From Bacilli bacterium (GTDB lineage Bacteria; Bacillota_I; Bacilli_A; RFN20; CAG-826): 64,000 nucleotides of DNA. The position numbers and the translations under genes are program-made. Below, in pieces: positions 1,336-61,748 of the stretch (position 1 is its first letter; each line of letters begins with the position of its first letter). The stretch covers positions 50,854 through 114,853 of the forward strand of contig JAKSVG010000001.1 in assembly GCA_024408105.1 (NCBI GenBank), in the 5' to 3' direction. The notes under the pieces are model-generated. The model was not told the DNA's origin, did not search any database, and saw nothing but the letters and a program-made list of their open reading frames with translations.

Positions 1336-1355
1336 TTGTAATATCATTAAATATC

Positions 1356-1392: not shown

Positions 1393-1403
1393 ATTTAAAT
1401 AAA

Positions 1404-3638: not shown

Positions 3639-3640
3639 TA

Positions 3641-3676: not shown

Positions 3677-3715
3677 TTTTATTTTTAATTTCAAAATGCT
3701 ATGTATTGAATTTAT

Positions 3716-3744
3716 ACATAATAAAATGTATAATACAAAAGATT
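3716..3744 (+). promoter_or_regulatory. Sigma-A type promoter for hisS-aspS.
   Basis: -35 TTGAAT (3716-3721), a 17-nt spacer, and -10 TATAAT (3739-3744) preceded by TG. It lies about 19 nt upstream of the GGAG RBS of hisS. The ORF-track start at 3706 falls inside this promoter and was rejected. Confidence 0.65.
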
Positions 3745-3762
3745 AGAAACGGAGATTTTCGT

Positions 3763-6788: not shown

Positions 6789-6815
6789 TTTATTAATAAA
6801 TTAAGGAGAAATATT

Positions 6816-8786: not shown

Positions 8787-8795
8787 GTAAAAATA

Positions 8796-9140: not shown

Positions 9141-9141
9141 T

Positions 9142-11376: not shown

Positions 11377-11557
11377 TAGTAAATTTGATTTTGAAAAATC
11401 ACTAAAAAGATTAGACGAAATTGTTGAAAAAGTAGAAAACGAAACCCTTCCTTTGGAAGAAACATTAAAATTGTATGAAGAAGGCAAGAAACTTATCAAG
11501 GAATTAGAGTCTACACTAAAAGAGGCTGAAAAGAAAATAGAGGAACTATCAAAATAA
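11369..11557 (+). CDS. xseB: Exodeoxyribonuclease VII small subunit.
   Basis: 62-aa coiled-coil protein (FEKSLKRLDEIVEKVENETLPLEE) overlapping the xseA stop. Confidence 0.85.
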   Translation: MDSSKFDFEKSLKRLDEIVEKVENETLPLEETLKLYEEGKKLIKELESTLKEAEKKIEELSK

Positions 11558-11604
11558 CATAGTTAAATTGTGTTATTAGTATTTTTTTAGTATTTATTTA
11601 GTTT

Positions 11605-13476: not shown

Positions 13477-13482
13477 CATTTA

Positions 13483-13526
13483 AGCATATCTTGGTTAACA
13501 TAATATTGATATGCTTTTTTATTTTA
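13483..13526 (+). terminator. Rho-independent terminator of dxs.
   Basis: Stem agcatatc / gatatgct around a 17-nt loop, followed by ttttttatttt. Confidence 0.55.
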
Positions 13527-13540
13527 TCTAAAATAATAAT

Positions 13541-15608: not shown

Positions 15609-15642
15609 TGATAATATAATTATCGTCTAAGGGAGTGAAAAA

Positions 15643-16836
15643 ATGAAATTTAAAAGAATATTTGTTATTGTAGCAGATTCAGCTGGAATTGGAGAAATGC
15701 CTGATGCTGCCAAATTTGGTGACGCAGGAACAAATACATTTGTTCATACTTCAGAAAAGTGTGGCGGATTAAATGTACCAGTCATGAATTCAATGGGTTT
15801 AGGCGAATTAGCTCCTGTCCTTGGAACAAGCAAAGTTTCTCATCCAAATTCATATTGCATGAGACTAAGAGAAGCAAGTGCTGGAAAAGACACTATGACT
15901 GGACACTGGGAAATGATGGGAATTTACACAACCAAACCATTCCAGACATTTACCGATACAGGTTTTCCTCAAAGTTTAATCGAAGAATTAGAAAAACGCA
16001 CTGGTCACAAAATAATTGGCAACAAAGCCGCAAGTGGAACAGAAATTCTTAAAGAATTAGGCGAAGAACAAAAACGAGATAATTCTTTAATTGTATATAC
16101 ATCCGCTGATAGCGTTCTCCAAATTGCTGCTCATGAAGAAACTACTGGTGTAAAAGAGTTATATAGATGCTGTGATATAGCCCGCGAACTATGTATGAAA
16201 CCCGAATATTTTGTCGGAAGAATCATTGCAAGACCTTTTATTGGTGACAGCGCAGAAACATTTAAACGTACTCCAAATAGACATGATATAGCTGTCAGCC
16301 CAACTGGTACGACTGTTATGAATATTTTGCAAGATAACCATTTTATGGTTAGTTGCGTTGGAAAAATAGGAGACATTTTCAACCAGGTCGGAGTTGTCAA
16401 AACCCAAAAGACTGTGAGCAATATGGATGGAATGGATAAAACAATTGACGAAGCTAAAAATCACGATTTTGAAGGATTGTGCTATGTCAATCTAGTTGAA
16501 TTTGATTCCGAATATGGTCATAGAAGAAACGCACTAGGATATGGAAAAGCATTAGAAGAATTCGATGTTCGCATAGGCGAACTCATAAAAGTTCTACACG
16601 ACGATGACTTACTAATGATTACAGCAGATCACGGAAACGATCCAACCCATACCGGGACAGATCATACAAGGGAAAAAGTTCCTTTACTTGTTTATAGTAA
16701 ATCATTCAAAAACGGAAGATATCTTGATGAAAGATCTACATTCGCAGATATTGGTGGTACAATTCTCAAAAACTTTGGGTTAAAGAAATCAGACAATGAG
16801 ATTGGAGAACCAATCTATGAGTTGTTCGAAGATTAG
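15643..16836 (+). CDS. deoB: Phosphopentomutase.
   Basis: MKFKRIFVIVADSAGIGEMPDA... is typical of DeoB/Drm (alkaline phosphatase superfamily). 397 aa. GGGAG RBS. Confidence 0.9.
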   Translation: MKFKRIFVIVADSAGIGEMPDAAKFGDAGTNTFVHTSEKCGGLNVPVMNSMGLGELAPVLGTSKVSHPNSYCMRLREASAGKDTMTGHWEMMGIYTTKPFQTFTDTGFPQSLIEELEKRTGHKIIGNKAASGTEILKELGEEQKRDNSLIVYTSADSVLQIAAHEETTGVKELYRCCDIARELCMKPEYFVGRIIARPFIGDSAETFKRTPNRHDIAVSPTGTTVMNILQDNHFMVSCVGKIGDIFNQVGVVKTQKTVSNMDGMDKTIDEAKNHDFEGLCYVNLVEFDSEYGHRRNALGYGKALEEFDVRIGELIKVLHDDDLLMITADHGNDPTHTGTDHTREKVPLLVYSKSFKNGRYLDERSTFADIGGTILKNFGLKKSDNEIGEPIYELFED

Positions 16837-17791
16837 AAAAATTTCAATTTTGCCTTTATTGACAATAGCCTTAATTAGTTGTTCTAAAACTAAGCAAAGT
16901 CTCATGTGCGTGTGTCCTAAGGGAGCACCTGCACTTAGTTTTTATAACGTAAATTTCGAAGAAATTGAATTCAGATCAGAACCAACACTAGTTTTATCAG
17001 AATTACAAAAAAATGATTTTGATATGGTTGTTTTCGACTCGATTAATGGATTAAAAAGCTGCGTGAAAAACAAAGCTAACTATGCTTTAGCAAAGCTAAT
17101 TACAGGTGGCAATTTCTATTTAGTAGGAATTGATGTAAAGCCATTAAGCGATGGAAGTTATCCTCTCCCAAAGAGTGATGACATAGTTGTTTCGTTTGGG
17201 CAAAACCTAATACCAGATTTAGTTTATTCAAAACTATGTTCTGACTTTTGGCACATAGAAAATAATGCACATTACGTTAATAGCGTAAACGATGCCTTGG
17301 CCGTATTGAAAAGTGGAAGATATAGTGGTGGAAATGCCAATTACGTATTTATTGCTGAACCAGCATTAACAGCAGCATTAAACGACAAAACATGCGAAAC
17401 ATACGGAAAAGTTAACATAGTTAAAAATATACGTTCAGAATGGAAAATTTATTCTGGCCAAGATGGGTTAGCTCAAGCTGGTATATTCGTGAACAAATCT
17501 TCATATGAAAAGAGAAAAGATGAATTGCATAAATATATTGTTAATGTAGAAAATGCTATTGAAACCGCTATAAACGATCCTTTAAGTGTAAAACACGATA
17601 TGGATTCAAAGCTGAGTCTTAATGAACAAATTGAAAAATACGGGTTTAATTCAAACACAGTTCTTCAAGTCCAAAGTGATAACCGCAATGGATTCGGATT
17701 AGTGGGGAAAAATGAATCAATTGACGTTAATAAATTTTTGGAATACTTAGGACAAAGTCCTATACCAGAGGATTATTTTATTGAAGTATGA
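16817..17791 (+). CDS. Lipoprotein, putative ABC-transporter substrate-binding protein.
   Basis: Signal peptide with lipobox LISC|S. GGAGAA RBS in front of ATG 16817. The ORF-track start at 16796 overlaps deoB more deeply. Directly followed, with overlap, by a permease gene. Confidence 0.6.
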   Translation: MSCSKIRKISILPLLTIALISCSKTKQSLMCVCPKGAPALSFYNVNFEEIEFRSEPTLVLSELQKNDFDMVVFDSINGLKSCVKNKANYALAKLITGGNFYLVGIDVKPLSDGSYPLPKSDDIVVSFGQNLIPDLVYSKLCSDFWHIENNAHYVNSVNDALAVLKSGRYSGGNANYVFIAEPALTAALNDKTCETYGKVNIVKNIRSEWKIYSGQDGLAQAGIFVNKSSYEKRKDELHKYIVNVENAIETAINDPLSVKHDMDSKLSLNEQIEKYGFNSNTVLQVQSDNRNGFGLVGKNESIDVNKFLEYLGQSPIPEDYFIEV

Positions 17792-18561
17792 GAAGAATCA
17801 CAAGATTTTATAAAAATAATCGTATTCTAATTTGGACAATTATCGGAACAGGAACATTGTTTTTACTTTGGTGGATAATTTCATTGCTTGTAAATTCAAC
17901 ATTGTTTCCTGGCCCACAAGTGGTTGTTCCAGAATTTGTGGCGCATTTAGGCAAAGGGGGCACATATCTTGCAATTGGAGGAACATTAATAAGGTTATTA
18001 ATCTCGATTGCTTTAGGTTTTTTCTTTGGAATACTTCTAGGTATATTTGGTGGTCTTTCAGTTGGGTTTAGAGCATTTATGAGACCGTTTATTATTGTTT
18101 TTAGAACAATTCCAACGGCAGCAGTCGTTTTCATTATAGTCGCTTTGCTAAAACCAATGTTTGCACCGACAATTATCGTATTTCTAATTGTGTTCCCAAT
18201 TCTCTATGAATCGGTTGTCAGCGGAATTACAAACGTAGATCAATCAATTGTTGACGCACTAAAAATCGATGGAACAAATGTTAGAAAGGCAGTATTCAAA
18301 ATATATTTGCCATTATCATGGAGTTATATTCTTTTAGGATTGGTATCAAGCATTGGCTTAGGAATGAAAGTTGGAATAATGAGTGAAATATTAGCTGGAA
18401 GCGATTCGGCAAATGGGCTTGGAAAGCTAATTCGTGATGCTGCGACAATTGCTGATATGAAAGGCGTTTTGTCCTATTCGTTAATCGCTATCATATTGAT
18501 TGGGTTAATTGATATAGGAATGTATTTCCTGAAGAAAAAATTAAAAAATTATGCAAGATAA
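17788..18561 (+). CDS. ABC importer permease (binding-protein-dependent inner-membrane component, NitT/TauT-like).
   Basis: Six TM helices and an EAA-loop motif (VDALKIDGTNVRKAVFKIYLPLS). The start overlaps the stop of the lipoprotein gene (ATGA). Confidence 0.75.
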   Translation: MRRITRFYKNNRILIWTIIGTGTLFLLWWIISLLVNSTLFPGPQVVVPEFVAHLGKGGTYLAIGGTLIRLLISIALGFFFGILLGIFGGLSVGFRAFMRPFIIVFRTIPTAAVVFIIVALLKPMFAPTIIVFLIVFPILYESVVSGITNVDQSIVDALKIDGTNVRKAVFKIYLPLSWSYILLGLVSSIGLGMKVGIMSEILAGSDSANGLGKLIRDAATIADMKGVLSYSLIAIILIGLIDIGMYFLKKKLKNYAR

Positions 18562-18590: not shown

Positions 18591-18799
18591 TGCAAACCAA
18601 GCAAAAATTGGAGTGGTAGTGAATCATAATTAGTAGATATTTAGTAGTTTTTATCCACAAAAATAATTGTTGAAAGATGGTTATTAGATATTTTATGCAA
18701 TCATTTGTTTTCGAAAAATATTCAAAAAAGATTCGATGAATACTTATATTTATACATTTTGGTTAACATAATAGTGATTATACGAAGTTATATGTTTTT

Positions 18800-26715: not shown

Positions 26716-27453
26716 TTGAACATGGATATTATTTTATATAATATAGTAACAGCATTTTGCTCATTATTTTTTGGATATATTTTTGGAAGTATACCAACTG
26801 GAGTTATGGTTGGGAAGTTAATATATCATCGTGATCCCCGCCAAGAAGGTTCTAAAAATTCAGGTGGAACTAATGTTGGTCGGCTTTTTGGAAAAAAAGC
26901 CGGTGTGCTTGTAATTATATTAGATATGCTTAAATGTGTATTACCAACAATTTCTGCATGGGCAATTATAAGCTTTTCAGGATTAAGTGAAGCATTAGCT
27001 TCAGATACCTGGAGTCAATTCCATATTTTATACATTTATTTAACACCATTAGGCGTAGCTTTAGGACATTGCTGGCCATTATTCGGCGGGTTTAAGGGCG
27101 GAAAAGCAGTTGCGACATTCTGTGGATTCGCTGCTTGCTCATGTTGGGCAATATTGATTTTGGGTGTTATTACATTCTTCACAACATTAAAAGCAAAAAA
27201 ATATGTCTCACTGGCATCAATAATCACAAGTCTAGTCGCTAGTATTTTGGCATGGATTTTGTTTGTTCTAAAAATCACTGTTTTTCCAAGCCAAATTGAT
27301 ATCGTTATGTGGGGTGCTGGATCCTTCCTAGTTTGTGGGTGGGAATTCGCATCTGTATTAACGCTAATTTCTTTAATGCTAATAATTCGCCATAGAGCAA
27401 ATATCGTCCGTTTGGTTAGACACGAAGAAAGAAAGATAAAATGGATGAAGTAA
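26716..27453 (+). CDS. plsY: Glycerol-3-phosphate acyltransferase PlsY.
   Basis: SKNSGGTNVGR (PlsY GxGNxGATN-like motif), multi-TM, C-terminal HRANIVRLV. Lies divergent to parE as in Bacillus. 245 aa, somewhat long for the family. Confidence 0.8.
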   Translation: MNMDIILYNIVTAFCSLFFGYIFGSIPTGVMVGKLIYHRDPRQEGSKNSGGTNVGRLFGKKAGVLVIILDMLKCVLPTISAWAIISFSGLSEALASDTWSQFHILYIYLTPLGVALGHCWPLFGGFKGGKAVATFCGFAACSCWAILILGVITFFTTLKAKKYVSLASIITSLVASILAWILFVLKITVFPSQIDIVMWGAGSFLVCGWEFASVLTLISLMLIIRHRANIVRLVRHEERKIKWMK

Positions 27454-27518
27454 TAGTATGTCGTTAGTAGTTTTTTAGTAGTTTTATTTATTGTGTGAAA
27501 TTCCTAGATAATTTGAAG

Positions 27519-27554
27519 ACTCCCAAAATTGTTTCGATGAATTGGGAGTTTTTA
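27519..27554 (+). terminator. Rho-independent terminator of plsY.
   Basis: actcccaa ... ttgggagt hairpin followed by ttttt. Confidence 0.7.
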
Positions 27555-36452: not shown

Positions 36453-38258
36453 TTATTTCGCCTTTTTCTCGTTTGTGCGTTTAATATAATCATCAAGCAG
36501 GCGTGCTTGTTCAGCAGGAGATTTTCCTTCAAGGGCAAGTTTAATATTTGTCCTATTGTAATTCTTGGTTCGTTCTTCGTTGATTGTTATCAAACAATCA
36601 TTAAGAATTTCGTCAAGCTCATGCTTTTGGAATTTATGCAATGGAATTGCACTCAGTTCGTATAACAGTTTCCCCTTATTTGGATTATCGCTTTGCGAAA
36701 TATAATCCATTACCATTGATACATCCACTGAATTGTATTTTGATGCATACTCCACAAAATAATTTGCTAAGTCCCTATGTAAATCAATATTGAAGTAACC
36801 TATATTTTTTTCATAAAAATCTATTGCGTCCTTATCGTTTGCCATAAGTTCAAGAACTTGTCGCTCAGCACAGGCGAGTCTTCTTAGTTCGCGACTCACA
36901 TTAATGCCTTCATATTTTGGTTCATCTATTAAAATAGATTTGTCTGTTTTATCATGATTATCTGCTTTGTATTCTTTAATGAAATTTTTAATTGCATTCG
37001 CATTAAATCTCGTTACATCTGCGAGTTTATATATGTAATCCTCATATTCTAATTTTGACTTTATTCCAATTAGCATTGGAGCAAAATGAGAAATAACTTT
37101 TTTTCTATCCTCAACGGTTTCTAGAGGCGAAATATTTTTGTAGTAATTTAATGCAAAGTTAAACGGATCAACTAATGTCTTTACAAAAACTTTTAGTTTT
37201 TCTTCCCCATCTTGCTTAAGTATTTCATCTGGGTCACGAATTTCTCCAGGAAGCGATACAACTCTATATGAAATTCCAGCCTTATCAAGTGAGGACATAA
37301 TTTTCATCATTGCTTCTTGGCCTGGTTTATCTCCATCAAGGCATAATCTAATTTCTACATTTAGTCTGCGAATGAGCTCAATATGCTTATCTGTCAATTT
37401 TGTGCCCATTATAGCAACAGAAGAAGATATTCCTATGGAATCTAACGCAAATACATCCATAAAACCTTCAACCAAATATAGATATCCGTCATGTTTTGCT
37501 GACTGCTTTGCGATATGGTAGTTGTATAAAATTGATTCTTTTTTAAAAATTTTGGTTGTTGGAGAATTCACATATTTAGGTGCATCATCACCACTAGTCA
37601 TTTTTCTAGCAGAAAAACCTACCACTTGACCATTTGAGTTTTTTATTGGAAATATTAAACGACCAGCATTTGAGTCAGAAGTATCGGATGATCGAACTAA
37701 CGCAATACCAATATCTTCAATATTTTTCAAAGAAAAACCTTTCTGTTGCAAATAAGAAATAGTCATTTTTCCATTTTGCAATGAATAACCTAATGAATAT
37801 TTTTCTATTTGTTCTCTTGAAATTTGTCTTTTAGCTAAATAATCTAGAGCGGGCTTACCCTCATCGATCTGAAGACCGTATTCATAAAATTTTTGAAGTT
37901 CATTAATGCAGTTATAAAGAGTTTGTACATCTACATCAACAGGTTTTATTACCTCGTGTTTATGTAATCGTGGGTCATCGAAATTGATAATTTCGCAAAC
38001 CCTTTTAACTGCTTCACTAAAAGTAATTTTTTCGTAATCAGCGACAAAAGTAAAAACGTCTCCACCGTGATGACACACATAGCAATGGAATGTTTGTCTT
38101 TCTTTGTTAATGTCCATACTAGGAGTATGATCATCATGAAATGGACAAAGAGCAACGTAGCGTCTTCCTTTTTTAATCACGTTTAAATAGGAAGAGATGA
38201 CATCCACAATGTCGGCTCTACTTTTTATTTCTGCTAATAAATCGTGATCAAATACCAT
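36453..38258 (-). CDS. dnaG: DNA primase.
   Basis: Zinc-binding CPFHDDHTPS...CYVCHHGGD, TOPRIM domain, C-terminal helicase-binding domain. The ORF-track start is TTG 38279; ATG 38258 (MVFDHDLL) was preferred. Confidence 0.88.
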   Translation of the reverse strand: MVFDHDLLAEIKSRADIVDVISSYLNVIKKGRRYVALCPFHDDHTPSMDINKERQTFHCYVCHHGGDVFTFVADYEKITFSEAVKRVCEIINFDDPRLHKHEVIKPVDVDVQTLYNCINELQKFYEYGLQIDEGKPALDYLAKRQISREQIEKYSLGYSLQNGKMTISYLQQKGFSLKNIEDIGIALVRSSDTSDSNAGRLIFPIKNSNGQVVGFSARKMTSGDDAPKYVNSPTTKIFKKESILYNYHIAKQSAKHDGYLYLVEGFMDVFALDSIGISSSVAIMGTKLTDKHIELIRRLNVEIRLCLDGDKPGQEAMMKIMSSLDKAGISYRVVSLPGEIRDPDEILKQDGEEKLKVFVKTLVDPFNFALNYYKNISPLETVEDRKKVISHFAPMLIGIKSKLEYEDYIYKLADVTRFNANAIKNFIKEYKADNHDKTDKSILIDEPKYEGINVSRELRRLACAERQVLELMANDKDAIDFYEKNIGYFNIDLHRDLANYFVEYASKYNSVDVSMVMDYISQSDNPNKGKLLYELSAIPLHKFQKHELDEILNDCLITINEERTKNYNRTNIKLALEGKSPAEQARLLDDYIKRTNEKKAK

Positions 38259-38290
38259 ATATAAATTACTATTAATCAACTAATTTTTAA

Positions 38291-39664
38291 CTATTTTTCA
38301 ATTTTATCTAAAAGATAGTTTCTAACATCACTTATAGGCATTCTAATTTGTTCCATAGTATCGCGGTCTCTAATTGTGACACAATTGTCTTTTTCGACAG
38401 TATCAAAATCTACTGTTATACAGTAAGGTGTGCCTATCGCATCCTGCCTTCTATATCTTTTGCCAATCGAGCCTGTTTCATCATAAATAACAGAGAAATG
38501 CTTATTAAGCATCGATAACACTTCTTTCGCTTTTTCTCCAAGCTGCTTGCTTAATGGTAATACGGCTGCTAAATATGGTGCAAGAATTGGCTTTAAATGC
38601 ATTACGACTCTTGTATCATTTTCTTTTAATGTTTCAACATCATATGCTTCGCATGCAACCATCAAAAAGATTCTCTCCACCCCCATCGAAGGCTCAATGC
38701 AATAAGGAACATACTTTTCGTTTGTTTCTGAATCTAAATATTCTAATGATTCACCACTTGCTTCCATGTGGCGTTTAAGGTCATAATCCGTTCTATCGGC
38801 TACGCCGAGAATTTCTCCCCAACCAAATGGGAACATATATTCAACATCGGTGGTTGCTTTTGAATAGAAGGCAAGTTCTTCCGGTTCGTGATCCCTGTAT
38901 CTAAGGTTTTCTTGACTAATATTTAAAGATGACAAGAAATCTAATGAAAACTTTTTCCAATAGGAAAACCACTCTAAATCAGTACCTGGTTTGCAGAAAA
39001 ATTCCATTTCCATTTGTTCAAATTCGCGTACTCTGAATATAAAGTTCCCTGGAGTGATTTCATTGCGGAAACTCTTTCCTATATTGCAAATGCCGAAAGG
39101 TATTTTTCTTCTTGATGTTCTTTGAACATTTTTGAAGTTCACAAACATTCCTTGGGCTGTTTCTGGACGTAGATATACTAAGCTTTCGGAAGCTTCGGTC
39201 ACGCCAATGTGGGTTCTAAACATTAAATTAAATTGACGAATATCAGTAAAATCTGACTTCCCACATACAGGACACGAAACTTTGTTATCTTTGATAAACT
39301 TAACCATTTCTTCATTAGTCATCCCGTTTACGTCAACGTCTGGATATGCTTTTTCAATCAAATTATCAGCGCGATGGCGTGAATGGCAATTTTTACAATC
39401 AATTAAAGGATCAGCAAATGTGGCAACGTGTCCAGTTGCTTTCCAAACATTAGGATTCATCAATATTGCTGCATCAATTCCAACATTAGTTGGAGATTCA
39501 CGAACGAATTTCTCCCACCAATATTTTTTAATATTATTTTTTAGCTCAACACCTAGCGGACCAAAATCCCATGAATTGGAAAGACCACCATAGATTTCAG
39601 AATCTTGATAAACAAATCCGCTAGTAATTAAGTGTGTAACAATTTCATCAAATTTCTTTTTCAT
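38291..39664 (-). CDS. glyS: Glycine--tRNA ligase (dimeric alpha2 type).
   Basis: 457 aa class II GlyRS of the GlyQS/eukaryotic-like single-chain form (IVTHLITSGFVYQDSEIYGG...). Confidence 0.88.
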   Translation of the reverse strand: MKKKFDEIVTHLITSGFVYQDSEIYGGLSNSWDFGPLGVELKNNIKKYWWEKFVRESPTNVGIDAAILMNPNVWKATGHVATFADPLIDCKNCHSRHRADNLIEKAYPDVDVNGMTNEEMVKFIKDNKVSCPVCGKSDFTDIRQFNLMFRTHIGVTEASESLVYLRPETAQGMFVNFKNVQRTSRRKIPFGICNIGKSFRNEITPGNFIFRVREFEQMEMEFFCKPGTDLEWFSYWKKFSLDFLSSLNISQENLRYRDHEPEELAFYSKATTDVEYMFPFGWGEILGVADRTDYDLKRHMEASGESLEYLDSETNEKYVPYCIEPSMGVERIFLMVACEAYDVETLKENDTRVVMHLKPILAPYLAAVLPLSKQLGEKAKEVLSMLNKHFSVIYDETGSIGKRYRRQDAIGTPYCITVDFDTVEKDNCVTIRDRDTMEQIRMPISDVRNYLLDKIEK

Positions 39665-42223: not shown

Positions 42224-43411
42224 CTATAAATTGCATTTATGAATGAATTTAGCCTTGTCTTTTTTGTAATCAGAAATTTCCCAATCCGCATTAAGAAAAA
42301 CGTCAAAGTTCATCAGAAGAACATAATATAATCCAAAGTGAAAAATCACATAATTTACACTGATTTCTTTAGCAGATAACATAAGCAAAAAGCTAATTAT
42401 AATAACTATAAATGTATTAATACATTTTCTTAAAGCAATTTTTAAAGCAAAAGAAGATGATTTATTACATACTGATTTAATATCTTCAACTAAGTTTGAT
42501 CTTGCAGAACTGCAAAGTGCTTGTTCATTGATAGATATATCATCTTTAATTTTGCAGTCACCTTTATGAAACATAATTTTTTCAATGACACACACTAATA
42601 AAAGAATTAAGAAAGCTATACAATTTTTTGAATCATTTAAAATTAAGCTAACAACTATAATTATCGTGAGAATTAAACTAGAAAATAATTTACGAGAATA
42701 AGAAAAATATTTTGACTTAAAACTTGCATAAAATTTATAGTCATTTTTTGATATATTATTGCTTGAGAAAAATAATGGGATATATTTATTATCAAAGAAT
42801 TTAATTTCTTTGATTAAATACCATTTTTCTACTAATTCGAAAATCATAAATATAGTCAATAAAATAAATGGAGTAAGAATAAAAGAATCACCTTTTATGA
42901 AATATAAACCCGTTACCAAAGAGGCTACTCCTAGTATCGAAAGTGAAAGAGAAATAATTTGGGAAATTGGGGATAGGATATTTTTGTTTTTTATTTTTAG
43001 TTCCTTTCTTTTATATTCTGCTATTTCAAGAGTTTCTCCACTCCAACTATTTAAAAATTTATCAATTTTAATTTTGATAGAACCAAGTGATGGATCATTG
43101 ACTAGGATGAATTTTGTTGTGATCTTTTTCACTAATACTAAATGATTAGAATTAATAAGCACTAAAGCAGGAATGTTTATCTTTGATAAATCTTTATCAA
43201 TATATTTAAACGCACAAAGTTTAACGTTATATCTTGAAGCGATTTCGATTAAATTCGAAAAAGAATATGGACGGTCTTTAAAAGGGGAATTAAGACGCAG
43301 AAAAGATTTATTCTTGTTTATTGTGGCTAAAAGCATTTTTAATGACGCAAAGCCACAATCATGTTCGCTCCCTTGATAGCAAAAATATTTTGACACTAGT
43401 TTCACCTCCAA
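42224..43411 (-). CDS. Membrane protein with an N-terminal peptidase-C39 (double-glycine leader peptidase) domain and a C-terminal multi-TM region; no ABC ATPase domain.
   Basis: Q-x5-DCGFASL (oxyanion Gln plus nucleophile Cys), NHLVLV (His) and NDP (Asp) arranged as in C39 peptidases. This is followed by about 6 hydrophobic helices. The gene is extremely AT-rich. Confidence 0.55.
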   Translation of the reverse strand: MEVKLVSKYFCYQGSEHDCGFASLKMLLATINKNKSFLRLNSPFKDRPYSFSNLIEIASRYNVKLCAFKYIDKDLSKINIPALVLINSNHLVLVKKITTKFILVNDPSLGSIKIKIDKFLNSWSGETLEIAEYKRKELKIKNKNILSPISQIISLSLSILGVASLVTGLYFIKGDSFILTPFILLTIFMIFELVEKWYLIKEIKFFDNKYIPLFFSSNNISKNDYKFYASFKSKYFSYSRKLFSSLILTIIIVVSLILNDSKNCIAFLILLLVCVIEKIMFHKGDCKIKDDISINEQALCSSARSNLVEDIKSVCNKSSSFALKIALRKCINTFIVIIISFLLMLSAKEISVNYVIFHFGLYYVLLMNFDVFLNADWEISDYKKDKAKFIHKCNL

Positions 43412-54199: not shown

Positions 54200-54226
54200 T
54201 TGGCACTCATATTTTCCGAGTGCTAA
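54200..54226 (-). promoter_or_regulatory. CIRCE operator (HrcA binding site), promoter-proximal copy.
   Basis: TTGGCACTC-N9-GAGTGCTAA, against consensus TTAGCACTC-N9-GAGTGCTAA. In the 5' UTR of hrcA, just downstream of the -10. Confidence 0.85.
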
Positions 54227-54230
54227 TCAT

Positions 54231-54258
54231 ATTATAGATTGAATATTGGCACTGTCAA
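54231..54258 (-). promoter_or_regulatory. Sigma-A promoter of the hrcA-grpE-dnaK-dnaJ operon.
   Basis: Minus strand: TTGACA (rc of 54253-54258), 16-nt spacer, TATAAT (rc of 54231-54236). Confidence 0.75.
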
Positions 54259-54272
54259 GCGGTAAGTGCTAA
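54246..54272 (-). promoter_or_regulatory. Second, imperfect CIRCE copy overlapping the -35.
   Basis: TTGGCACTG-N9-AAGTGCTAA. One mismatch per arm relative to the first copy. Confidence 0.7.
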
Positions 54273-54279: not shown

Positions 54280-54308
54280 TAAATAAAAGAAAAACCGCAA
54301 AGCGGTTA
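54280..54308 (-). terminator. Rho-independent terminator after the hemW/RDD genes (minus strand).
   Basis: Minus strand: aaccgc-ttt-gcggtt followed by ttttcttttattt. Confidence 0.7.
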
Positions 54309-54334: not shown

Positions 54335-54763
54335 TTAAATAGAACGATTTCTCCAGTCAGCAACGAGTGTTTTTGTAACTCTATCAAATATTGATTTTTC
54401 AGTGTGACTAATCATTACATATAATGTGTTTATAATCGCTAAAACAATGAGTCCATTCATTGCCGAGCGAGAAATGCAGTCTCCAAATGTTAATTTGCTA
54501 ACATCATTATGAACTACTCTAAGACCTATTATTAAATTTCCTAAGGTTCTTCCGTTAGATGTTTTTAGCCATATAGAATACATCAACGTATAAATTAACC
54601 AATCGGCAGCAATAAACATTAACACTACAAAAAATGCTGGTATAGTGACAAAATCTCTAAACAAAAATATCGCAGCAACCAATACTCCAGCAGAAATTAT
54701 TAATGCAAAAACAAAGTCTATTACATAGGCCCAGGTTCTTTTCATATAACTTGCGATATTCAT
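54335..54763 (-). CDS. RDD-family membrane protein.
   Basis: 142 aa with three TM helices and an N-terminal KRTWAYVIDFV RDD-like segment. Overlaps the hemW stop. Confidence 0.55.
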   Translation of the reverse strand: MNIASYMKRTWAYVIDFVFALIISAGVLVAAIFLFRDFVTIPAFFVVLMFIAADWLIYTLMYSIWLKTSNGRTLGNLIIGLRVVHNDVSKLTFGDCISRSAMNGLIVLAIINTLYVMISHTEKSIFDRVTKTLVADWRNRSI

Positions 54764-55848
54764 AATAATTCCAATAAGACACGATCGAGGGTAACTATCC
54801 CTTCATCGCTAAGCATTATTCTATCATTATTTATGATAAGAAGGTTATCATTAATTAATTTTGTGATTTTAGAAGAAAATATTTCTGTGAAATCGTGCCC
54901 AAATCTTTCTTTAAAATCTAATCTAGAAAAACCATCTTCTAATCTTAAGTTGCATAGCAAATAGTCTTCAAGAATTTCTTCTTTGCTAAGTTTTTCACTG
55001 GTTCCAATAAAATCGTGTTTCAAATAATTGGTCAGGTTTTTTGTGTTTGTATATCTAACGCCATTGACATAACCGGATGCGCCTAAACCGGCCCCATAGT
55101 ATTCTTCATCTTTCCAGTATGTAAGATTATGTCGTGAAAATTTTCCGTTCTTTGCAAAATTACTAACTTCATAACGCTTAAACCCATGCTTTCTCAATGC
55201 ATTTACGATATGATCGTAATATAAACGCGAATCGTCCTCGTTTTGTTCTTTGATTCCTTTGTTGTAAAAAGCTGTATTTTTAGAAACGATAAGAGAATAA
55301 ATAGAAACATGGTTTGTGTTTAAATTGATTATATTGTTTAAATCATTTTTTAGGTCATCCAAACTTTGGTGAGGAAAACCGTAAATCAAATCAACATTTA
55401 CTTCAAAATATTTTTGTAATTCTATGACGGCGTTAATAGCGTCTTGATATGTATGATGTCTGCCTATTGCTCTTAAAAGAGCATCATTTGTAGATTCCAC
55501 CCCTACAGAGACTCTTGTGACACCATATTTTTTCATCAAAATGATTTTTTCTCCAGAAAGATTTTCAATGTTCGCTTCGACAGTGAATTCTCCTCCTTGT
55601 TCGAGCAATGGAGAAACTTTTTTTAGTAGACTTTCAAATTCATCTAGCGATAATGCTGTCGGGGTACCACCGCCAATATAAATCGTCTTTACATGATCAA
55701 TATTGAATGAATCAATTTCATAGAAAAGAGCCTTTAGATAGGGCTCGGAAAATTTTTTGTTATAGAATAGTTTTGTAAAATCGCAATATTCACATATATG
55801 TGCGCAGAAGGGCACATGGATGTACAAAGAATTAGTCTTTTTTGGCAT
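54760..55848 (-). CDS. hemW: Radical-SAM heme chaperone HemW (HemN-like, YqeR).
   Basis: YIHVPFCAHICEYCDF radical-SAM motif. HemN C-terminal domain. 362 aa. Sits between lepA and hrcA as in Bacillus. Confidence 0.85.
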   Translation of the reverse strand: MPKKTNSLYIHVPFCAHICEYCDFTKLFYNKKFSEPYLKALFYEIDSFNIDHVKTIYIGGGTPTALSLDEFESLLKKVSPLLEQGGEFTVEANIENLSGEKIILMKKYGVTRVSVGVESTNDALLRAIGRHHTYQDAINAVIELQKYFEVNVDLIYGFPHQSLDDLKNDLNNIINLNTNHVSIYSLIVSKNTAFYNKGIKEQNEDDSRLYYDHIVNALRKHGFKRYEVSNFAKNGKFSRHNLTYWKDEEYYGAGLGASGYVNGVRYTNTKNLTNYLKHDFIGTSEKLSKEEILEDYLLCNLRLEDGFSRLDFKERFGHDFTEIFSSKITKLINDNLLIINNDRIMLSDEGIVTLDRVLLELL

Positions 55849-56098
55849 CGTTTTTAGTTACATCTTTTAATGTGGCTTCTTCCATTTGCTTTTGGATATT
55901 TTCATCCTCGATTGGAACTAAAATACGATCAAGTTCTTGCTTTGCAAGTTCTTCTTCTGAAATATCGTCTTTTTTGATTTGAAGCGATGTAAAATGTTTC
56001 TTAACTAAAATAATGATTAAAATCAATAATCCAAAAAATGCTAAAACAGAGATTAAGATAACACCTGTTAATGCTGGTCCGTCCAATAATAATTTCAT
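55832..56098 (-). CDS. Small single-pass membrane protein (88 aa) with an acidic C-terminal tail.
   Basis: TM helix LTGVILISVLAFFGLLILIIILV, then a K/E/D-rich tail. Overlaps the hemW start by 17 nt. Confidence 0.45.
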   Translation of the reverse strand: MKLLLDGPALTGVILISVLAFFGLLILIIILVKKHFTSLQIKKDDISEEELAKQELDRILVPIEDENIQKQMEEATLKDVTKNDAKKD

Positions 56099-56118
56099 AA
56101 TTTTTTACCGCCCTTATT

Positions 56119-57495
56119 TTACTCTTTAGTGATTGGTGTGTAAACAAACTTATTTTTTACTTGCTCGCGTCTGTAATAGCCAGCACGCGCTAAATTATCC
56201 ATAGATGTGCGCGCTGTTTCATAAACACATTTTTCACATTGTTTAAATTGTTGAATTGTATAATATTTGCCCATTGTGCAATGCCTCACATAAAAGTGAG
56301 CATGGCTTGGTCTTAATGTAGGATCACTTTCCAACAAATCTTCTGCAGCTCTTTTAAGAGCTTTTTCATCTAACTCTTGGAAAACTTTTACATTTACTTT
56401 TGGTTGATTATTAGCTGGCTGAGCAGGTTTTTTGTTATCAACAACAGGTTTTGTTTCATTGTTTATAGATGGCTGAATATATACTTTTTCATCTTCAACT
56501 TCAGGTTCATCGCTATAAAAAGCTTTTTCAGTTGCGTCTCTAGAAACTGTAACAACTCTATCAAGAACCAAAGATAGAATGTCATCAGTCATTTTAGCTG
56601 ATTCAATAACATAATATGTTAAATCATTATTTTTTTGAGCTTCTTTAGAGCAATTCGATAATAATCCTCTAGTATCAATTAGCAGGATCTCCATAGGAAT
56701 TAATGCTGCCGCATGAATTTTATGATTTTTTTGAATTACTGATTTAATTAAAAGAGCAGTCATCTCTTCATTGTAATTCTCAAAGGGCATAATGTAATTC
56801 ATAGCAAAGCTAATGCCAGCAATTTTTGTCAGAATATCAACATTTGAATCATTCAAAAATACAATCAAATTCTCCATCATCGATTCAATAGCAGATGTTG
56901 GTGCGCCATTATATTCTCGATTTATTAGTACTTTTTGACTAGGAGCGCTTATTTCATTTTCTCTATAAAATGAAGTTAATTCGCCACCCTCGAGTATTTC
57001 TAAAAATTTAGCAATTAATGACTCATCAATAATTAAATTATTAGTTTGTTCTAGCATGGTAAGAGCGGAGTAATATCTCGAAATTGGCTCATATAATAAG
57101 TCACAGCTTCTACCAGCGATAATATTATCTAAAGCTATATCATTTACAATGATGTTTTTAACTTTGGCGATATGTCGTAAACTTTGACGCATCATATCTT
57201 TACGGAAAGTTTCTTTTTCAATAGAGCCGTCCTTTAATGAATCAAACTCAGAAAAGACTTGTTCTATTCTAGAATTTATTTTTTCGCATTTGTTCAATAC
57301 ATTGCTTGTCAATGTTACATAATAAGAGTATTTATTAATATCTTTCAAAGAAAGATAAGACATAAAAGTCTTACGATAATTAATAATTTGAACCCAAATT
57401 GAATCAATTAAATTTGTTCCTAATGATTTCGCAACATCACTTCTAGTTGCGTAAACTTCATCCGTGAAACGAATAGCAAGATTAGAATTAGCCAT
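56119..57495 (-). CDS. Fic-family-like protein with a degenerate catalytic motif and a C-terminal winged-helix domain.
   Basis: AGISFAMNYIMPFENYNEEMTALLI aligns to the Fic core A-x-h-H-x-x-h-I-H-P-F-x-[DE]-G-N-G-R-x-x-R-L-L. The His and GNGR residues are replaced. The N-terminus resembles Fic_N (SLGTN in place of IEGTQ). C-terminal wHTH-like YYTIQQFKQCEKCVYETARTSMDNLARAGYY. Confidence 0.45.
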   Translation of the reverse strand: MANSNLAIRFTDEVYATRSDVAKSLGTNLIDSIWVQIINYRKTFMSYLSLKDINKYSYYVTLTSNVLNKCEKINSRIEQVFSEFDSLKDGSIEKETFRKDMMRQSLRHIAKVKNIIVNDIALDNIIAGRSCDLLYEPISRYYSALTMLEQTNNLIIDESLIAKFLEILEGGELTSFYRENEISAPSQKVLINREYNGAPTSAIESMMENLIVFLNDSNVDILTKIAGISFAMNYIMPFENYNEEMTALLIKSVIQKNHKIHAAALIPMEILLIDTRGLLSNCSKEAQKNNDLTYYVIESAKMTDDILSLVLDRVVTVSRDATEKAFYSDEPEVEDEKVYIQPSINNETKPVVDNKKPAQPANNQPKVNVKVFQELDEKALKRAAEDLLESDPTLRPSHAHFYVRHCTMGKYYTIQQFKQCEKCVYETARTSMDNLARAGYYRREQVKNKFVYTPITKE

Positions 57496-57579
57496 AATTA
57501 TTTACCTCTCAACCATTTTACTATAAAGAATTATCTTATACAATAAGAAATATACTAAATTTAAACTAAAAAACAACTA

Positions 57580-59391
57580 TTAATCTTCGTCATCAATAGA
57601 AAGAACACTCATAAAAGCTTCTTGTGGAACTTCAACTGAGCCAATAGCTTTCATGCGCTTCTTTCCTTCTTTTTGCTTTTCAAGCAATTTGCGCTTTCTA
57701 GAAATGTCACCACCATAACATTTAGCAAGAACATCTTTTCTGACCGCTTTAATATCTGCTCTAGCTATGACTTTGCCATTTATGGCAGCTTGTACAGGAA
57801 CTTCAAATTGCTGACGTGGAATAATTTCTTTTAGTTTTCTAACAACTATGCTACCTCTTTCATAGGCTGTTGATCTATGAACGATAATCGATAAAGCGTC
57901 AATTACATCTCCATTTAGGAGAATATCCATTTTTGCTAATGTTCCGCTCTTATATCCACAGTATTCATAGTCGAATGATGCATATCCTTTTGTATAACTT
58001 TTTAATTTGTCAAAGAAATTGTAAACAATTTCAGATAATGGTAACTCATATGTAATCACCATTCTTGTATCATCAAAATATTGGAGATCTTTATAAATAC
58101 CTCTTCTGTTTTGACATAATTCCATAACAGGGCCAACATATTCCTTAGGAGTCATTATATCGGCTTTAACATATGGCTCTTGGATTTCCTTAATTAAAGT
58201 AACATCTGGCAATTTTGACGGATTATCAAGCTCAATCATATCACCTTTGGTGAGATAAACATGATAAATAACACTTGGCGCAGTCAATATTAAATCTAAA
58301 CCGTATTCTCTTTCGAGTCGTTCTTGAACTACATCCATGTGAAGCAAACCTAAAAAGCCACATCTAAATCCAAAACCTAAAGCTTGCGAGGTTTCAGCTT
58401 CGAATACTAAAGATGCATCATTCAAACAAAGCTTTTCTAAGGCATCTTTTAAATCTAAAAACTTCTTACTATCCACAGGATAGAGTCCGCAGTAAACCAT
58501 TGGATTCATTTTTCTATAGCCAGGCAATGCTTGGGAACATGGGTTATTAGCATTAGTCACTGTGTCACCTGGAAACACATCTTTGATGTCTTTTATTTGT
58601 GCTGCAATATATCCAACTTCGCCAGCAGACAATTGAATCTTTTTTAACTCCTTAGGAGTTCTTATGCCGACTTCGGTAACAAGATATTCTTTTCCTGATG
58701 ACATGAGTCTAATTGTATCGCCAACCTTCACAACACCATTCTTAATATTAACCAAAACAACAACTCCACGGTATGAATCATAGAAGGAATCAAAAATTAA
58801 GGCCTGCAAAGGCGCATTAGAGTCGCCTTTTGGCGCTGGTATATATTTGACTATTGCTTCAAGCACATCGCCCACTCCAACGCCTGTTTTTGCACTGACG
58901 TAACAAGCATTATCGCAAGGAATGCCAATTCTTTCTTCAATTTCTTTTACAGCATTTTCCGGCATTGCACTAGGCAAATCAATTTTATTAATAACAGGAA
59001 TAATTTCCAAATTGTTATCAACTGCTAAATAGACATTGGCTAATGTTTGGGCTTCGACTCCTTGAGTCGCATCAACAACTAGCAAACATCCTTCACAGGC
59101 AGCAAGCGACCTACTTACTTCGTAAGAAAAGTCAACATGCCCCGGGGTGTCGATTAAATTAAACACATAATCTTCACCGTTTTGAGCATGATATTTTAAG
59201 GTAACTGCATTTAGTTTAATTGTAATGCCACGTTCTCTCTCTAAATCCATCGAATCAAGAAATTGCTCTTTCATTTCTCTTTTAGAGATTGTTTCAGTTA
59301 ATTCTAAAATTCTATCAGCCAATGTTGATTTTCCATGGTCAATATGAGCAATGATTGAGAAGTTTCTTATATGTGCTTTATCAAAATCCAT
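57580..59391 (-). CDS. lepA: Elongation factor 4 (LepA).
   Basis: G domain ([19 protein letters not shown]) plus the LepA-specific C-terminal domain. 603 aa. Confidence 0.95.
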
Positions 59392-59420: not shown

Positions 59421-61748
59421 TTAGTCATTCCAAAATTTTTTAACTGTTCTATTAACATCTTCTGGGCATGTTACTACTATGTAGTCATTCCATTCGTTTT
59501 TAAACAAATCCCTATAGGTTGAATTCATATATCTTTCGTCAATTAGCAAAGCAACTCCTCGGTCAGATTCACTTCTAATTACTCTTCCGACTGCTTGCAT
59601 AACCTTATTCATCCCTGGATTAATGTAACTATAGTTGTAACCTTTATTATTTTCTTTATCAAAGAACTCGCGAATCTTTTCTTTCTCAAAGCATATTTGT
59701 GGTAATCCAACACCAACTACAACAACGCCAATAAGTCTATCACTCACAAGATCTATACCTTCTCCAAATGCTCCTCCGACTACAGCAAGACCAACAGTTG
59801 TAACTTTAGGCTTGTCGGTAAATAACGATAAAAAGTCGCGCTTATCAACTTCGCTCATATCTTTTTCTTGAACGATTAAATTTGCATCATCAAGATTTAA
59901 AACATTTTTCAAATTTTCAAGATATTCATAACTTGGAACATAAATAAAATAGTTTCCTATTTTGCCTTTAACAAACTCTTTGATGTATGATGCAACAACT
60001 TTATAAGTTGAATTTCTATCTTTATATTTTATTGAAACTTTTGGAGCAATCATTAAACACAAGTTTTCTTTTGGAAATGGCGACGGTAACATTAAAACAG
60101 GACTCTCACCGCTGCCACCAATCATATTGATATAGTAATCAATAGGAGAAAGGGTAGCAGAAAAAACTACTTTACTTCTCACTTTGTCCAATGATTTTCT
60201 TAAAAAATCGCTTGGGTTTAAGCACAACAAGCAAATCTTTGTATCGTTATCGCTTTTAGAGATGTAAAGGCAGAAGTTTTCGTTAAAATACTCAAGCAAA
60301 CGATTAAATCTAACTAAATCATGCGAAAATGAAACAAATTCATCTGTTATGAATTCATGATGATGTTTTGACACATCAATTGATGCTAAAAGATACGCTT
60401 CAATTGCATTCAGCGAGGTTTGGCTTAAAGATTCAATTATTGTTTCGCCATTTTCTAAATTGCTATATTCAGAAAATATCTTTGATATTCTTTTTATGGC
60501 ATTCTTAATCTTTTTATGTTCTAAGTGCTTTAATGAACGCTTTACTTTTTTAAATAGCGATTCACTAATAGATGAACTATACATTCCTCTGCCTCTTTCC
60601 ACAAGATTGTGCGCTTCATCAACTAAGACAGCCATTTTTGAGGCATCTTCATCAAAATAACGTTTCAAGTAAACCATCGGATCGAAGAAATAGTTATAAT
60701 CACAAATTATTATGTCAACATATAAAGACAAATCTAATGATAATTCAAATGGGCATATTCCTTTTTTGGATGCGATGCCTAAAATTACTTCACGTGAAAA
60801 TTCGTTATATGCTTTTATCGAATTAATTAATATCTTTCTGATTTTTGTGTAATAGCCTTTTGCATAAGGACATTCATCAGGATTGCAGGCTTTGCCTGGG
60901 CAATAACACATTTTGTCTTTTGCAGTTATTAGAATGTCACTTGCAATAAGACCATTTTTTCTCATAATTGAGACAGTTTGAAAAGCTGTTTCTTTGCCAG
61001 AGCCCTTCGCAGTTAAGTAGAAAATTTTATCATTGGTTTCATTAGCAAAACTTTTTGCATACGGATAAAGAGTTGAAATTGTCTTTCCAATGCCTGTTGG
61101 GGCTTCGCAGAATAATAAACCACCATCCTTGGCGATGCCATATGAGTATTTAGCTAATTTCTTTTGCCCTTTTCTAAAATTGTCGAATGGGAAAGTGAGT
61201 TTTTTTGCAGATTCATTTCTAATTATTGTTCGATTATAAATTAATTTATAAAAATCAAGGTATTCTATTAGAAGTTTATTTATATCGGTTTCTAATTTCG
61301 ATGTTTTGAATGTAAATTTCTTAATCATTCTTTCATCCGTTAATTGATGGATGTATGTAAGATTAATATTCACATGATCCAGTCCTTTTTCATGAGCGTA
61401 CATTAATGCATAGCATTTTGCTTGACCTAAATGCCATTCTTTCTGCTCATTAAAAAATGACTCTAGAGGGGAAATGGTTGATTTTATTTCATCAATCGTG
61501 ACCTCATTTTTATCTACGATAATTCCATCTGCTCTGCCTTCTAAAGATATTTTGAAGTCATCCACATCAAATGTTTCAAATAATTGGTATTCAGAAATAT
61601 AATTTTTGCCTTGTTTTGTTTGATAAAAGCTATGAATGCGTGTGCCTTCATTCATAGTAGTTTTATTAAAAACGCGATTATCGATATCGCCGGTTCTAAG
61701 CAAAAAATCAACTAACTGATGAACAGATAATTTCAAATTCTTATTCAT
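59421..61748 (-). CDS. Nuclease-helicase: N-terminal RecB/Cas4-like PD-(D/E)XK nuclease domain fused to an XPD/Rad3/DinG-like SF2 helicase with an Fe-S cluster domain.
   Basis: N-terminus: GRADGIIVD (motif II Asp), IDEIKS (E-x-K), QAKCYAL (QxxxY). Helicase: Walker A EAPTGIGKT, 4-Cys cluster CYCPGKACNPDECPYAKGYY, DEAH box VLVDEAHN, C-terminal motifs (QAVGRVIRS). 775 aa. Confidence 0.8.
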   Translation of the reverse strand: MNKNLKLSVHQLVDFLLRTGDIDNRVFNKTTMNEGTRIHSFYQTKQGKNYISEYQLFETFDVDDFKISLEGRADGIIVDKNEVTIDEIKSTISPLESFFNEQKEWHLGQAKCYALMYAHEKGLDHVNINLTYIHQLTDERMIKKFTFKTSKLETDINKLLIEYLDFYKLIYNRTIIRNESAKKLTFPFDNFRKGQKKLAKYSYGIAKDGGLLFCEAPTGIGKTISTLYPYAKSFANETNDKIFYLTAKGSGKETAFQTVSIMRKNGLIASDILITAKDKMCYCPGKACNPDECPYAKGYYTKIRKILINSIKAYNEFSREVILGIASKKGICPFELSLDLSLYVDIIICDYNYFFDPMVYLKRYFDEDASKMAVLVDEAHNLVERGRGMYSSSISESLFKKVKRSLKHLEHKKIKNAIKRISKIFSEYSNLENGETIIESLSQTSLNAIEAYLLASIDVSKHHHEFITDEFVSFSHDLVRFNRLLEYFNENFCLYISKSDNDTKICLLCLNPSDFLRKSLDKVRSKVVFSATLSPIDYYINMIGGSGESPVLMLPSPFPKENLCLMIAPKVSIKYKDRNSTYKVVASYIKEFVKGKIGNYFIYVPSYEYLENLKNVLNLDDANLIVQEKDMSEVDKRDFLSLFTDKPKVTTVGLAVVGGAFGEGIDLVSDRLIGVVVVGVGLPQICFEKEKIREFFDKENNKGYNYSYINPGMNKVMQAVGRVIRSESDRGVALLIDERYMNSTYRDLFKNEWNDYIVVTCPEDVNRTVKKFWND

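Follow-up and report, generated by a model that had tools for sequence, protein, structure and literature searches.

FicL, a family of pseudo-Fic proteins encoded between lepA and hemW in uncultured Bacilli and preceded by TTAGTA-type direct repeats

The gene discussed here, which we call ficL, lies in a stretch of 64,000 nucleotides (the window) that covers positions 50,854 to 114,853 of the forward strand of contig JAKSVG010000001.1, GenBank assembly GCA_024408105.1, from a Bacilli bacterium. The organism belongs to CAG-826, a family within the GTDB order RFN20 (PMC10868615). Coordinates below are positions in the window, and everything at the ficL locus lies on its minus strand. There the order is a DinG-like helicase gene (59421-61748), lepA (57580-59391), ficL (56119-57495, stop codon included), a gene for a small membrane protein of 88 amino acids (aa) (55832-56098), hemW (54760-55848) and a gene for an RDD-family membrane protein (54335-54763), followed by hrcA-grpE-dnaK. 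The lepA, hemW and RDD genes were identified with Pfam and NCBIfam models; hemW encodes a member of the radical-SAM haem chaperone family (TIGR00539 at 1.9e-83). FicL itself is a pseudo-Fic protein of 458 aa. Its gene begins 84 nt downstream of lepA, and the small open reading frame starts 20 nt past the ficL stop codon and overlaps the start of hemW by 17 nt, so that hemW is probably translationally coupled to it. The RDD gene, which overlaps hemW by 4 nt, is the last gene of a putative operon; the unit of ficL, small gene, hemW and RDD gene ends at a hairpin with a T-run that resembles an intrinsic terminator (54293-54307). An initial annotation, made from the letters of the window alone, had described two extra genes between lepA and hemW, co-oriented with hemW, the smaller overlapping its start, and both genes are indeed there. 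It also called them inserted. This is correct relative to the order in Bacillus subtilis, where hemN/hemW directly follows lepA; it is not correct as a statement about a recent event, since the pair is old and lineage-wide.

The evidence for this age comes from the relatives. A search of a set of 5.8 billion proteins (cut-off E<=0.001) returned 568 FicL homologues, and a library of 50%-identity clusters gave 288 representatives at E<=1e-30, nearly all of them full-length and with the same architecture. When one genome was taken for each GTDB species, 426 species genomes were found to encode a FicL relative. We fetched 80 of these loci, and all 80 come from metagenome-assembled uncultured Bacilli, the family CAG-826 among them, under NCBI labels that include 'Bacilli bacterium', 'Erysipelotrichaceae bacterium', 'Bacillales bacterium UBAxxxx', 'Candidatus Fiminaster equi' and 'Coprobacillus sp. 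CAG:826'. The small protein of the window is identical to an NCBI entry named 'MAG: hypothetical protein [Bacilli bacterium]', where MAG stands for metagenome-assembled genome. The order lepA-ficL-(small gene)-hemW is kept in 80 of the 80 loci, which settles in the affirmative the question of whether the gene pair is conserved in related genomes. All loci with enough flanking sequence have dinG-lepA-ficL-small gene-hemW(-RDD)-hrcA-grpE-dnaK, the RDD gene being present in about one third of the related loci. In two loci (L010, L011) the dnaK operon has been relocated and the lepA-ficL-small gene-hemW block is intact. Two deliberately divergent matches to the small protein (120 and 137 aa) have the same neighbours, with a FicL homologue (30% and 27% identity, respectively) on one side and hemW on the other. 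Since the order of the locus is fixed even among homologues of 27-30% identity, ficL and the small gene are an old, lineage-wide feature.

The small gene is co-conserved with ficL and is physically coupled to hemW. In five loci of one clade (L021, L023, L026, L034, L035) a gene for a pfkA-like 6-phosphofructokinase of about 321 aa stands between ficL and the small gene, and the small gene still abuts or overlaps hemW there. Because pfkA separates the pair in these loci, the physical coupling is to hemW rather than to ficL. Guanine-plus-cytosine (GC) content shows no shift along the region, and the two genes have the same value as their flanks. Two other explanations of the pair can be set aside. 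A pseudogene or chance open reading frame is ruled out by the hundreds of full-length homologues, the confident structural model and the strict synteny; a recent insertion or mobile element is ruled out by the GC content matching that of the flanks, by the lack of mobility genes and by the occurrence of the pair at the same locus in all genomes.

What kind of protein is FicL? Its AlphaFold model (mean predicted local distance difference test, pLDDT, 88.6; predicted template modelling score 0.70) has an N-terminal domain, a helical core, a segment with pLDDT below 50 at residues 331-359, and C-terminal helices followed by a beta-hairpin (377-454). The N-terminal domain (aa 1-62; 57310-57495) consists of three helices and a beta-hairpin, is winged-helix-like and has the invariant residues Y15, T27, L29, W34 and R41. 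The Fic (Fido) core follows (aa 63-330; 56506-57309), and then a disordered linker (aa 331-372; 56380-56505) that is rich in Pro, Glu, Lys and Val and variable in length, as seen from the low pLDDT and the alignment gaps. The C-terminal winged helix-turn-helix (wHTH; aa 373-458; 56122-56379) is net basic and is the most conserved part of the protein. Its mean column identity is 77%, as against 53% in the N-terminal domain and 40-45% overall, and its median net charge is +5, that of the Fic core being -9.

Profile search and structure prediction against Fic folds both lead to the same fold. Used as a query against solved structures, a profile of 121 FicL homologues matches the Fic proteins 4rgl (E 1.4e-10 over 208 residues), 8cil, which is CbFic2 (1.9e-7), 7cb8 (1.7e-5) and 9vjc, which is EcSofic (8e-4). 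This bears out the Fic-like core that had initially been proposed from the pattern of helices. The window protein taken alone scores 16.2 bits (E 0.019) against Pfam Fic PF02661, below the gathering cut-off of 24, but the family is recognised in 33 of 34 relatives at E<=0.1 (best E 1.2e-7). The alpha-helical Fido core is thus present, and after it comes a winged helix, also as first suggested, which is the order seen in class II Fic proteins of the SoFic type. This C-terminal domain has the wHTH fold of the Penicillinase_R repressors; the Pfam family gives 12.7 bits with the window protein (cut-off 22.6) and matches 18 of 34 relatives at E<=0.1 (best 2.3e-5). The suggestion of a Fic_N-like N-terminus has to be abandoned, none of 34 members matching Fic_N or DUF4172 at E<=0.1. 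Profiles of the N-terminal or the C-terminal domain alone gave only noise against PDB sequences. The segment 'SFYR...LINREY.GAP' aligns with the flap region of 4rgl; the model has no strands at residues 170-199, where pLDDT is about 80. Taken together, FicL has the Fic/Fido fold and an architecture of the SoFic/CbFic2 type, with an extra winged-helix-like N-terminal domain and a disordered linker.

The alterations in the active site are specific and are shared by the family. In place of the canonical FIC motif xxxHPFx[DE]GNGRxxRL, residues 233-248 (56752-56799) read NYIMPFENYNEEMTAL, with M-P-F-E-N-Y-N-E-E-M-T-A as the core of the degenerate motif in the window protein. The peptide AGISFAMNYIMPFENYNEEMTALL, on which the initial annotation had based its comparison, is found at residues 226-249 and does align with the FIC motif region of solved Fic proteins, with Met at the position of the His. 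The profile alignment places 'YIKPFEKYNEE' on 'FIHPFADGNGR' of those proteins, and the consensus of the 121-sequence alignment is N-Y-I-K-P-F-E-x-[YF]-N-x-E-[MIL]-[AS]. At the His position there is Lys in 116 of 121 sequences, Met in two (the window protein and its 99% identical twin) and Leu in one; at the position of the first Arg there is Glu in 108. The columns that are retained are those of Pro (121/121), Phe (120/121) and Asn (120/121), which in the loop of the Fic motif are the residues that hold its shape. The pattern H-x-F-x-x-[GA]-N-[GK]-R is found in none of 120 close homologues and 136 further representatives; two of these homologues have the His and lack the Gly and Arg residues. 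The inhibitory motif [ST]xxxE[GN] is conserved at neither of two candidate positions in the 121 sequences: at one of them only 46 of 121 sequences have Glu, and at the other Glu does not rank with the most frequent residues. An hhalign comparison with a canonical SoFic-type sequence covered the core only (residues 200-317), and the position equivalent to the inhibitory helix is ambiguous.

As judged from these alignments, the phosphate-binding and catalytic residues of FicL are replaced throughout the family, mostly by acidic or aromatic ones. Neither the catalytic His nor the Gly-Asn-Gly-Arg anion hole nor the second Arg is kept, and from this we infer that FicL has no canonical nucleotide triphosphate binding and no AMPylation activity. 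We are highly confident that FicL combines a Fic fold with the loss of enzyme function, that is, that it is a pseudo-enzyme. The initial annotation had noted the substitution of the His and of the GNGR loop in one protein and had spoken of a catalytically dead or repurposed Fic serving as pseudo-enzyme, regulator or binding module; the loss of catalytic residues across the family supports this reading.

The small gene is conserved as well. A small open reading frame is present in every locus, with 72-106 aa (120 and 137 aa in the two divergent loci), and its product has a short N-terminus, one strongly hydrophobic helix with basic residues right behind it, and an acidic tail whose net charge is about -2 to -16 in nearly all loci. 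The hydropathy maximum is about 3 in every orthologue. In the window protein, hydropathy predicts a single transmembrane helix at aa ~10-32 (56003-56071), followed by KKH, and the alignment of orthologues reveals a conserved motif, ELDRILVPIEDE (aa 55-66; 55901-55936), in the acidic C-terminal tail. Its consensus is EELDR[IV]LxP[IV][ED]DE, with L56, R58 and L60 conserved to 90% or more. The positive-inside rule predicts a cytoplasmic tail. The first description of an acidic 88-aa protein with a single transmembrane segment therefore stands, with 522 homologues behind it. Searches of Pfam, NCBIfam and PADLOC with the small protein found no fitting family, the sub-threshold Pfam matches being those typical of a single hydrophobic helix. 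It is possible that FicL and the small membrane protein are a functional pair.

The spacer between lepA and ficL contains a further conserved feature. In the window, three direct repeats of the TTAGTA type (ATAGTT / TTAGTT / TTAGTA) with a period of 11 bp (57553-57580) form a candidate operator. The first base of the array is also the last of the lepA stop codon. Downstream of them, an inverted repeat TCTTAT-TGT-ATAAGA (57534-57548) extends over the -35 region of a putative sigma-70-type promoter of the ficL operon (57515-57543), which we read from the sequence as a -35 box TTGTAT (57538-57543), a 17-nt spacer and a -10 box TAAAAT (57515-57520). The Shine-Dalgarno sequence GAGAGG follows at 57505-57510. 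A scan for consensus promoters did not list this promoter because of its weak -35 box.

This layout is common to the family. The spacer between lepA and ficL has a median length of 86 nt and consists of two to four TTAGTA-type hexamers, about 5 nt, a -35 box containing TTG, about 17 nt, a TATAAT-like box, GAGG and the ATG; it is kept across FicL proteins that share only 27-55% identity. TTAGTA-N5-TTAGTA with at most two mismatches is present in 71 of 74 lepA/ficL spacers. With at most one mismatch there are 109 sites in 78 loci (906 kb), and 102 of them are within 110 nt upstream of ficL on the same strand, in 68 of the 78 loci, where the repeats lie about 75 nt before the gene. Four loci (L064, L065, L073, L203) have a gene or 0.6-1.2 kb of DNA inserted after lepA, and in these the repeats remain beside ficL. 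They are also present in the divergent loci L201 and L203. The ficL gene is thus preceded by a conserved candidate operator. An inverted repeat of at least 5 bp over the -35 region occurs in 60% of loci, as compared with 23% of shuffled sequences, and its arms are clade-specific yet complementary (CTTAT/ATAAG, TATAT/ATATA, CTTGT/ACAAG, ATTGT/ACAAT). A scan of metagenomes for an exact triple TTAGTA repeat was uninformative: it returned unrelated repeats from many environments, with no ficL among the matches listed.

One divergent relative departs from the usual arrangement at the start of ficL. In L201 (3415-3475) the ficL ATG is only 9 nt past the TATAAT box, the start given by the gene caller being 13 codons too far upstream. 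This suggests a leaderless ficL mRNA in that organism.

Repeats of this type are found elsewhere too. TTAGTA-N5-TTAGTA with at most one mismatch occurs six times in the window, where 0.6 are expected. The seven best matches in the window to a weight matrix built from the other loci fall into five clusters, one of which is the lepA/ficL array. All five are intergenic, intergenic DNA making up 6.3% of the window, and all five are on the coding strand of the flanking genes. The remaining clusters are at the xseB/dxs junction (11573-11606, plus strand), after an ABC permease gene (18627-18649, plus strand), right after the plsY stop codon (27453-27483, plus strand) and at the glyS/dnaG junction (38264-38297, minus strand). 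Four related genomes (loci L205-L208) were obtained by way of their DnaG homologues. The glyS/dnaG array is present in three of the four (L205 9961-9994, L206 9961-9994, L207 9952-9985), and the array after plsY in both of those whose locus reaches plsY (L207 21551-21573, L208 21656-21678). The arrays at dnaG and dxs overlap the upstream stop codon with their first unit and end 1-9 nt before the ATG (38256-38258, minus strand, for dnaG; 11605-11607, plus strand, for dxs), and neither gene has a Shine-Dalgarno sequence. The dnaG start agrees with that of an NCBI protein (601 aa, 100% identical). Hence the dnaG and dxs mRNAs may be leaderless or initiated in some unusual way.

Several peculiarities of these arrays and their surroundings deserve to be recorded. 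With three units at an 11-nt period, each reading frame contains a TAG, and the units bear a loose resemblance to a -35/-10 pair. A hairpin (27519-27553, plus strand) lies some 40 nt past the repeats that follow plsY. Its loop, AATTGTTTCGATGAA, is invariant and its stem covaries, and a T-run and TTGAC come after it. Three genomes (that of the window, L207 and L208) share the hairpin, and Rfam has no match around the plsY element. It may be a small RNA, or else a terminator whose loop is functional. A perfect DnaA box, TTATCCACA (18651-18659, plus strand), is located 4 nt past the repeats that follow the ABC permease gene, in a gap of 272 nt that separates the plus-strand genes (265-18561) from the minus-strand genes (18834 onward). 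Finally, a repeat-like match, GAATTAGTAGAnAAnTGGTAT, lies inside a gene with a Peptidase_C39 domain (42816-42838, minus strand) and is conserved in L205 (5426-5448) and L207 (5424-5446). Here the conservation probably reflects constraint on the protein-coding sequence and not a regulatory site.

What could such a protein do? Probably FicL does not AMPylate but serves as a regulator specific to its lineage. Our preferred, still tentative suggestion is that FicL is a nucleic-acid-binding regulator made of a dead Fic scaffold and winged helices, which autoregulates through the TTAGTA repeats and also acts elsewhere in the genome at a small number of sites. The basic, near-invariant winged helix at the C-terminus, with some help perhaps from the N-terminal domain, would read the TTAGTA units, which are just as invariant. 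With a period of 11 bp these units would share one face of B-DNA, an arrangement known from winged-helix proteins whose sites are direct repeats. In this way FicL would autoregulate the ficL-small gene-hemW(-RDD) unit; the repeat element stays with ficL and not with lepA, as is usual for autoregulation. The same protein would also act at glyS/dnaG-sigA, at the 3' end of plsY and at xseB/dxs. The dead Fic core might serve as a scaffold for dimerisation, sensing or partner binding. More speculatively, the cytoplasmic acidic tail of the membrane protein might bind FicL and control its availability.

Two observations have to be set beside this suggestion. First, the positions of the repeats at dnaG and dxs are not accounted for by a simple activator model. 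Second, the repeats resemble the binding sites of a different class of proteins. Sites of the OmpR/PhoB family, e.g. the B. subtilis PhoP boxes TTAACA-N5-TTAACA, are direct repeats of hexamers with an 11-bp period that adjoin a weak -35 box and are bound by a winged helix. The TTAGTA repeats share the hexamer repeat, the period and the position abutting a weak -35, but FicL has no receiver domain. This likeness is the main reason to keep a response regulator in mind as the possible binder of the repeats. FicL would then be a non-catalytic adaptor whose dead Fic core, winged helix or both bind a protein or RNA (LepA/EF4, HemW, the ribosome or the small protein's tail), and another factor such as a response regulator would occupy the repeats. 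We consider this a less probable arrangement, though one to be taken seriously. Gene neighbourhood is its sole link to LepA or HemW, the repeat element follows ficL and not lepA, and the Fic core and the tail of the small protein are both acidic, which makes their docking on each other unlikely.

The autoregulator proposed above can also be extended, and here we enter the territory of the improbable. FicL might be a master regulator of the RFN20-type Bacilli, a domesticated SoFic-like toxin that reads TTAGTA iterons at gene boundaries and couples replication, transcription and lipid/isoprenoid genes to a membrane signal. The boundaries would be those of lepA/ficL, glyS/dnaG-sigA, xseB/dxs and the 3' end of plsY, with several of the arrays replacing a Shine-Dalgarno sequence. 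The small membrane protein with its acidic tail, perhaps with HemW, would relay the signal and sequester or release FicL.

It might be argued instead that FicL is an enzyme after all, in which the Lys-Pro-Phe-Glu-x-Tyr-Asn-x-Glu loop has become a new active site, as a hydrolase or de-modifying enzyme or as a metal-dependent transferase. The replacement residues are conserved (Lys in 116, Glu or Asp in 106, Asn in 120 and Glu in 108 of the 121 sequences) to an extent that exceeds what is expected of a decaying site, and the Fic fold is known to support several chemistries, namely AMPylation, phosphocholination (AnkX), phosphorylation (Doc) and deAMPylation (FICD, CbFic2). However, the Lys has given way to Met or Leu in the window protein and the relatives closest to it, the wider family has Arg, Gln, Ala or Glu at that position, and the Asn is changed to Ser in 30 of the 136 further representatives. 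Nor is there any phosphate-binding glycine-rich loop or Arg left in a loop that is acidic, and the regulatory Glu motif of active class II Fic enzymes is not conserved. On balance we doubt that FicL has been repurposed in this manner.

It is very improbable that FicL and the small gene are a still-active toxin or defence module of the SoFic type with an antitoxin like AS1: the best family-level PADLOC match of FicL is indeed the SoFic defence model (E 4.5e-8), its closest structures are SoFic, EcSofic and CbFic2, and the order of ficL and small gene mirrors that of EcSofic and its neutralising 47-aa protein, but the toxicity of Sofic needs the catalytic His (H194A is non-toxic; PMC12249575), and no FicL homologue has a canonical motif. 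The pair occupies one and the same housekeeping locus in all genomes examined, away from mobile elements and defence islands, and has the GC content of its surroundings; the small protein is twice the length of AS1, anchored in the membrane and coupled to hemW. A plasmid homologue of Sofic has no obvious small partner open reading frame downstream. A SoFic-like ancestor is plausible as the evolutionary origin of FicL, and not as its present function.

Comparison with characterised proteins helps to place the family. SoFic/EcSofic is a class II Fic AMPylase with a C-terminal domain that acts as a single-gene anti-phage system with a small antitoxin; EcSofic is neutralised by AS1, a protein of 47 aa encoded just downstream (PMC12249575). 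FicL differs in having no catalytic His, no GNGR loop, neither of the two Arg, no inhibitory [ST]xxxE[GN] and no DUF4172/Fic_N N-terminus. It has a disordered linker of 40-60 aa before the winged helix, its gene has a fixed place in the core genome, outside defence islands, and the downstream neighbour encodes an 88-aa membrane protein. CbFic2 of Coxiella burnetii consists of a Fic domain and a DeoR-type wHTH, and its helix-turn-helix (HTH) binds DNA and drives dimerisation (PMC10628234). It is an AMPylase/deAMPylase regulated by DNA binding, with the canonical motif HPFDDGNGRIGR, the inhibitory sequence TSAIEG and non-specific DNA binding; FicL has neither motif, and a specific repeat element precedes its gene.

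The functional model that we propose for FicL is CccR of Yersinia pseudotuberculosis, likewise a Fic domain with a C-terminal HTH, which binds a palindrome in its own promoter and represses itself (PMC9755527). The likeness is not complete. CccR has an active FIC motif, is exported by the type VI secretion system and binds at an inverted repeat of 10 bp with a spacer of 26 bp, whereas FicL has no catalytic site and would bind direct repeats of 6 bp with an 11-bp period. Fic folds that act by binding, without catalysis, are known in BepC and AvrB (PMC7842960). Both serve in virulence as secreted effectors whose targets are host proteins, and both are without a wHTH; FicL is intracellular and encoded at a housekeeping locus in a commensal lineage. 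The winged-helix repressors BlaI, MecI and CopY (Penicillinase_R) are controlled from the membrane, but their wHTH is N-terminal and their operators are palindromic. In FicL the wHTH is C-terminal, the sites are direct repeats, and the small membrane protein has no protease or sensor domain.

The Fic fold, the combination of Fic and wHTH, and non-catalytic Fic folds were all known before. What is new is a large, order-wide pseudo-Fic family in the core genome with a co-conserved membrane protein, and a conserved iteron-like element, absent from the initial annotation, that also marks other housekeeping gene boundaries. The family is one of uncharacterised, vertically inherited pseudo-Fic proteins of uncultured Bacilli with reduced genomes (RFN20-type MAGs). 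Fic proteins are usually read as AMPylating toxins, effectors or defence proteins, and the FicL family is none of these. Its catalytic site was lost long ago, yet it is under strong constraint at a fixed housekeeping locus in uncultured, partly wall-less Bacilli of the gut and rumen. It adds a bacterial core-genome case to the few non-catalytic Fic folds such as AvrB and BepC, and FicL may illustrate the domestication of a toxin or defence module into a regulator. With its TTAGTA repeats it provides a candidate regulator-operator pair in organisms with no known regulatory biology. There is also a practical side: ficL should not be annotated as an adenylyltransferase or scored as SoFic defence, although PADLOC matches it.

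Some further features of the window can be mentioned. At gathering thresholds Rfam finds no RNA family in the whole 64 kb (no tRNA, rRNA, riboswitch or T-box). Beyond the terminator-like hairpin of the ficL unit, a perfect TTGACA-16-TATAAT promoter upstream of hrcA is bracketed by two controlling inverted repeat of chaperone expression (CIRCE) elements (54200-54272, minus strand), so that hrcA-grpE-dnaK is under CIRCE control. The first, TTAGCACTT-N9-CAGTGCCAA, overlaps the -35 box of this promoter, and the second, TTAGCACTC-N9-GAGTGCCAA, lies past its -10 box. The hrcA start is likely to be the ATG at 54185, which has the ribosome binding site AAGGAGG, and not the GTG at 54206 chosen by the open reading frame finder.

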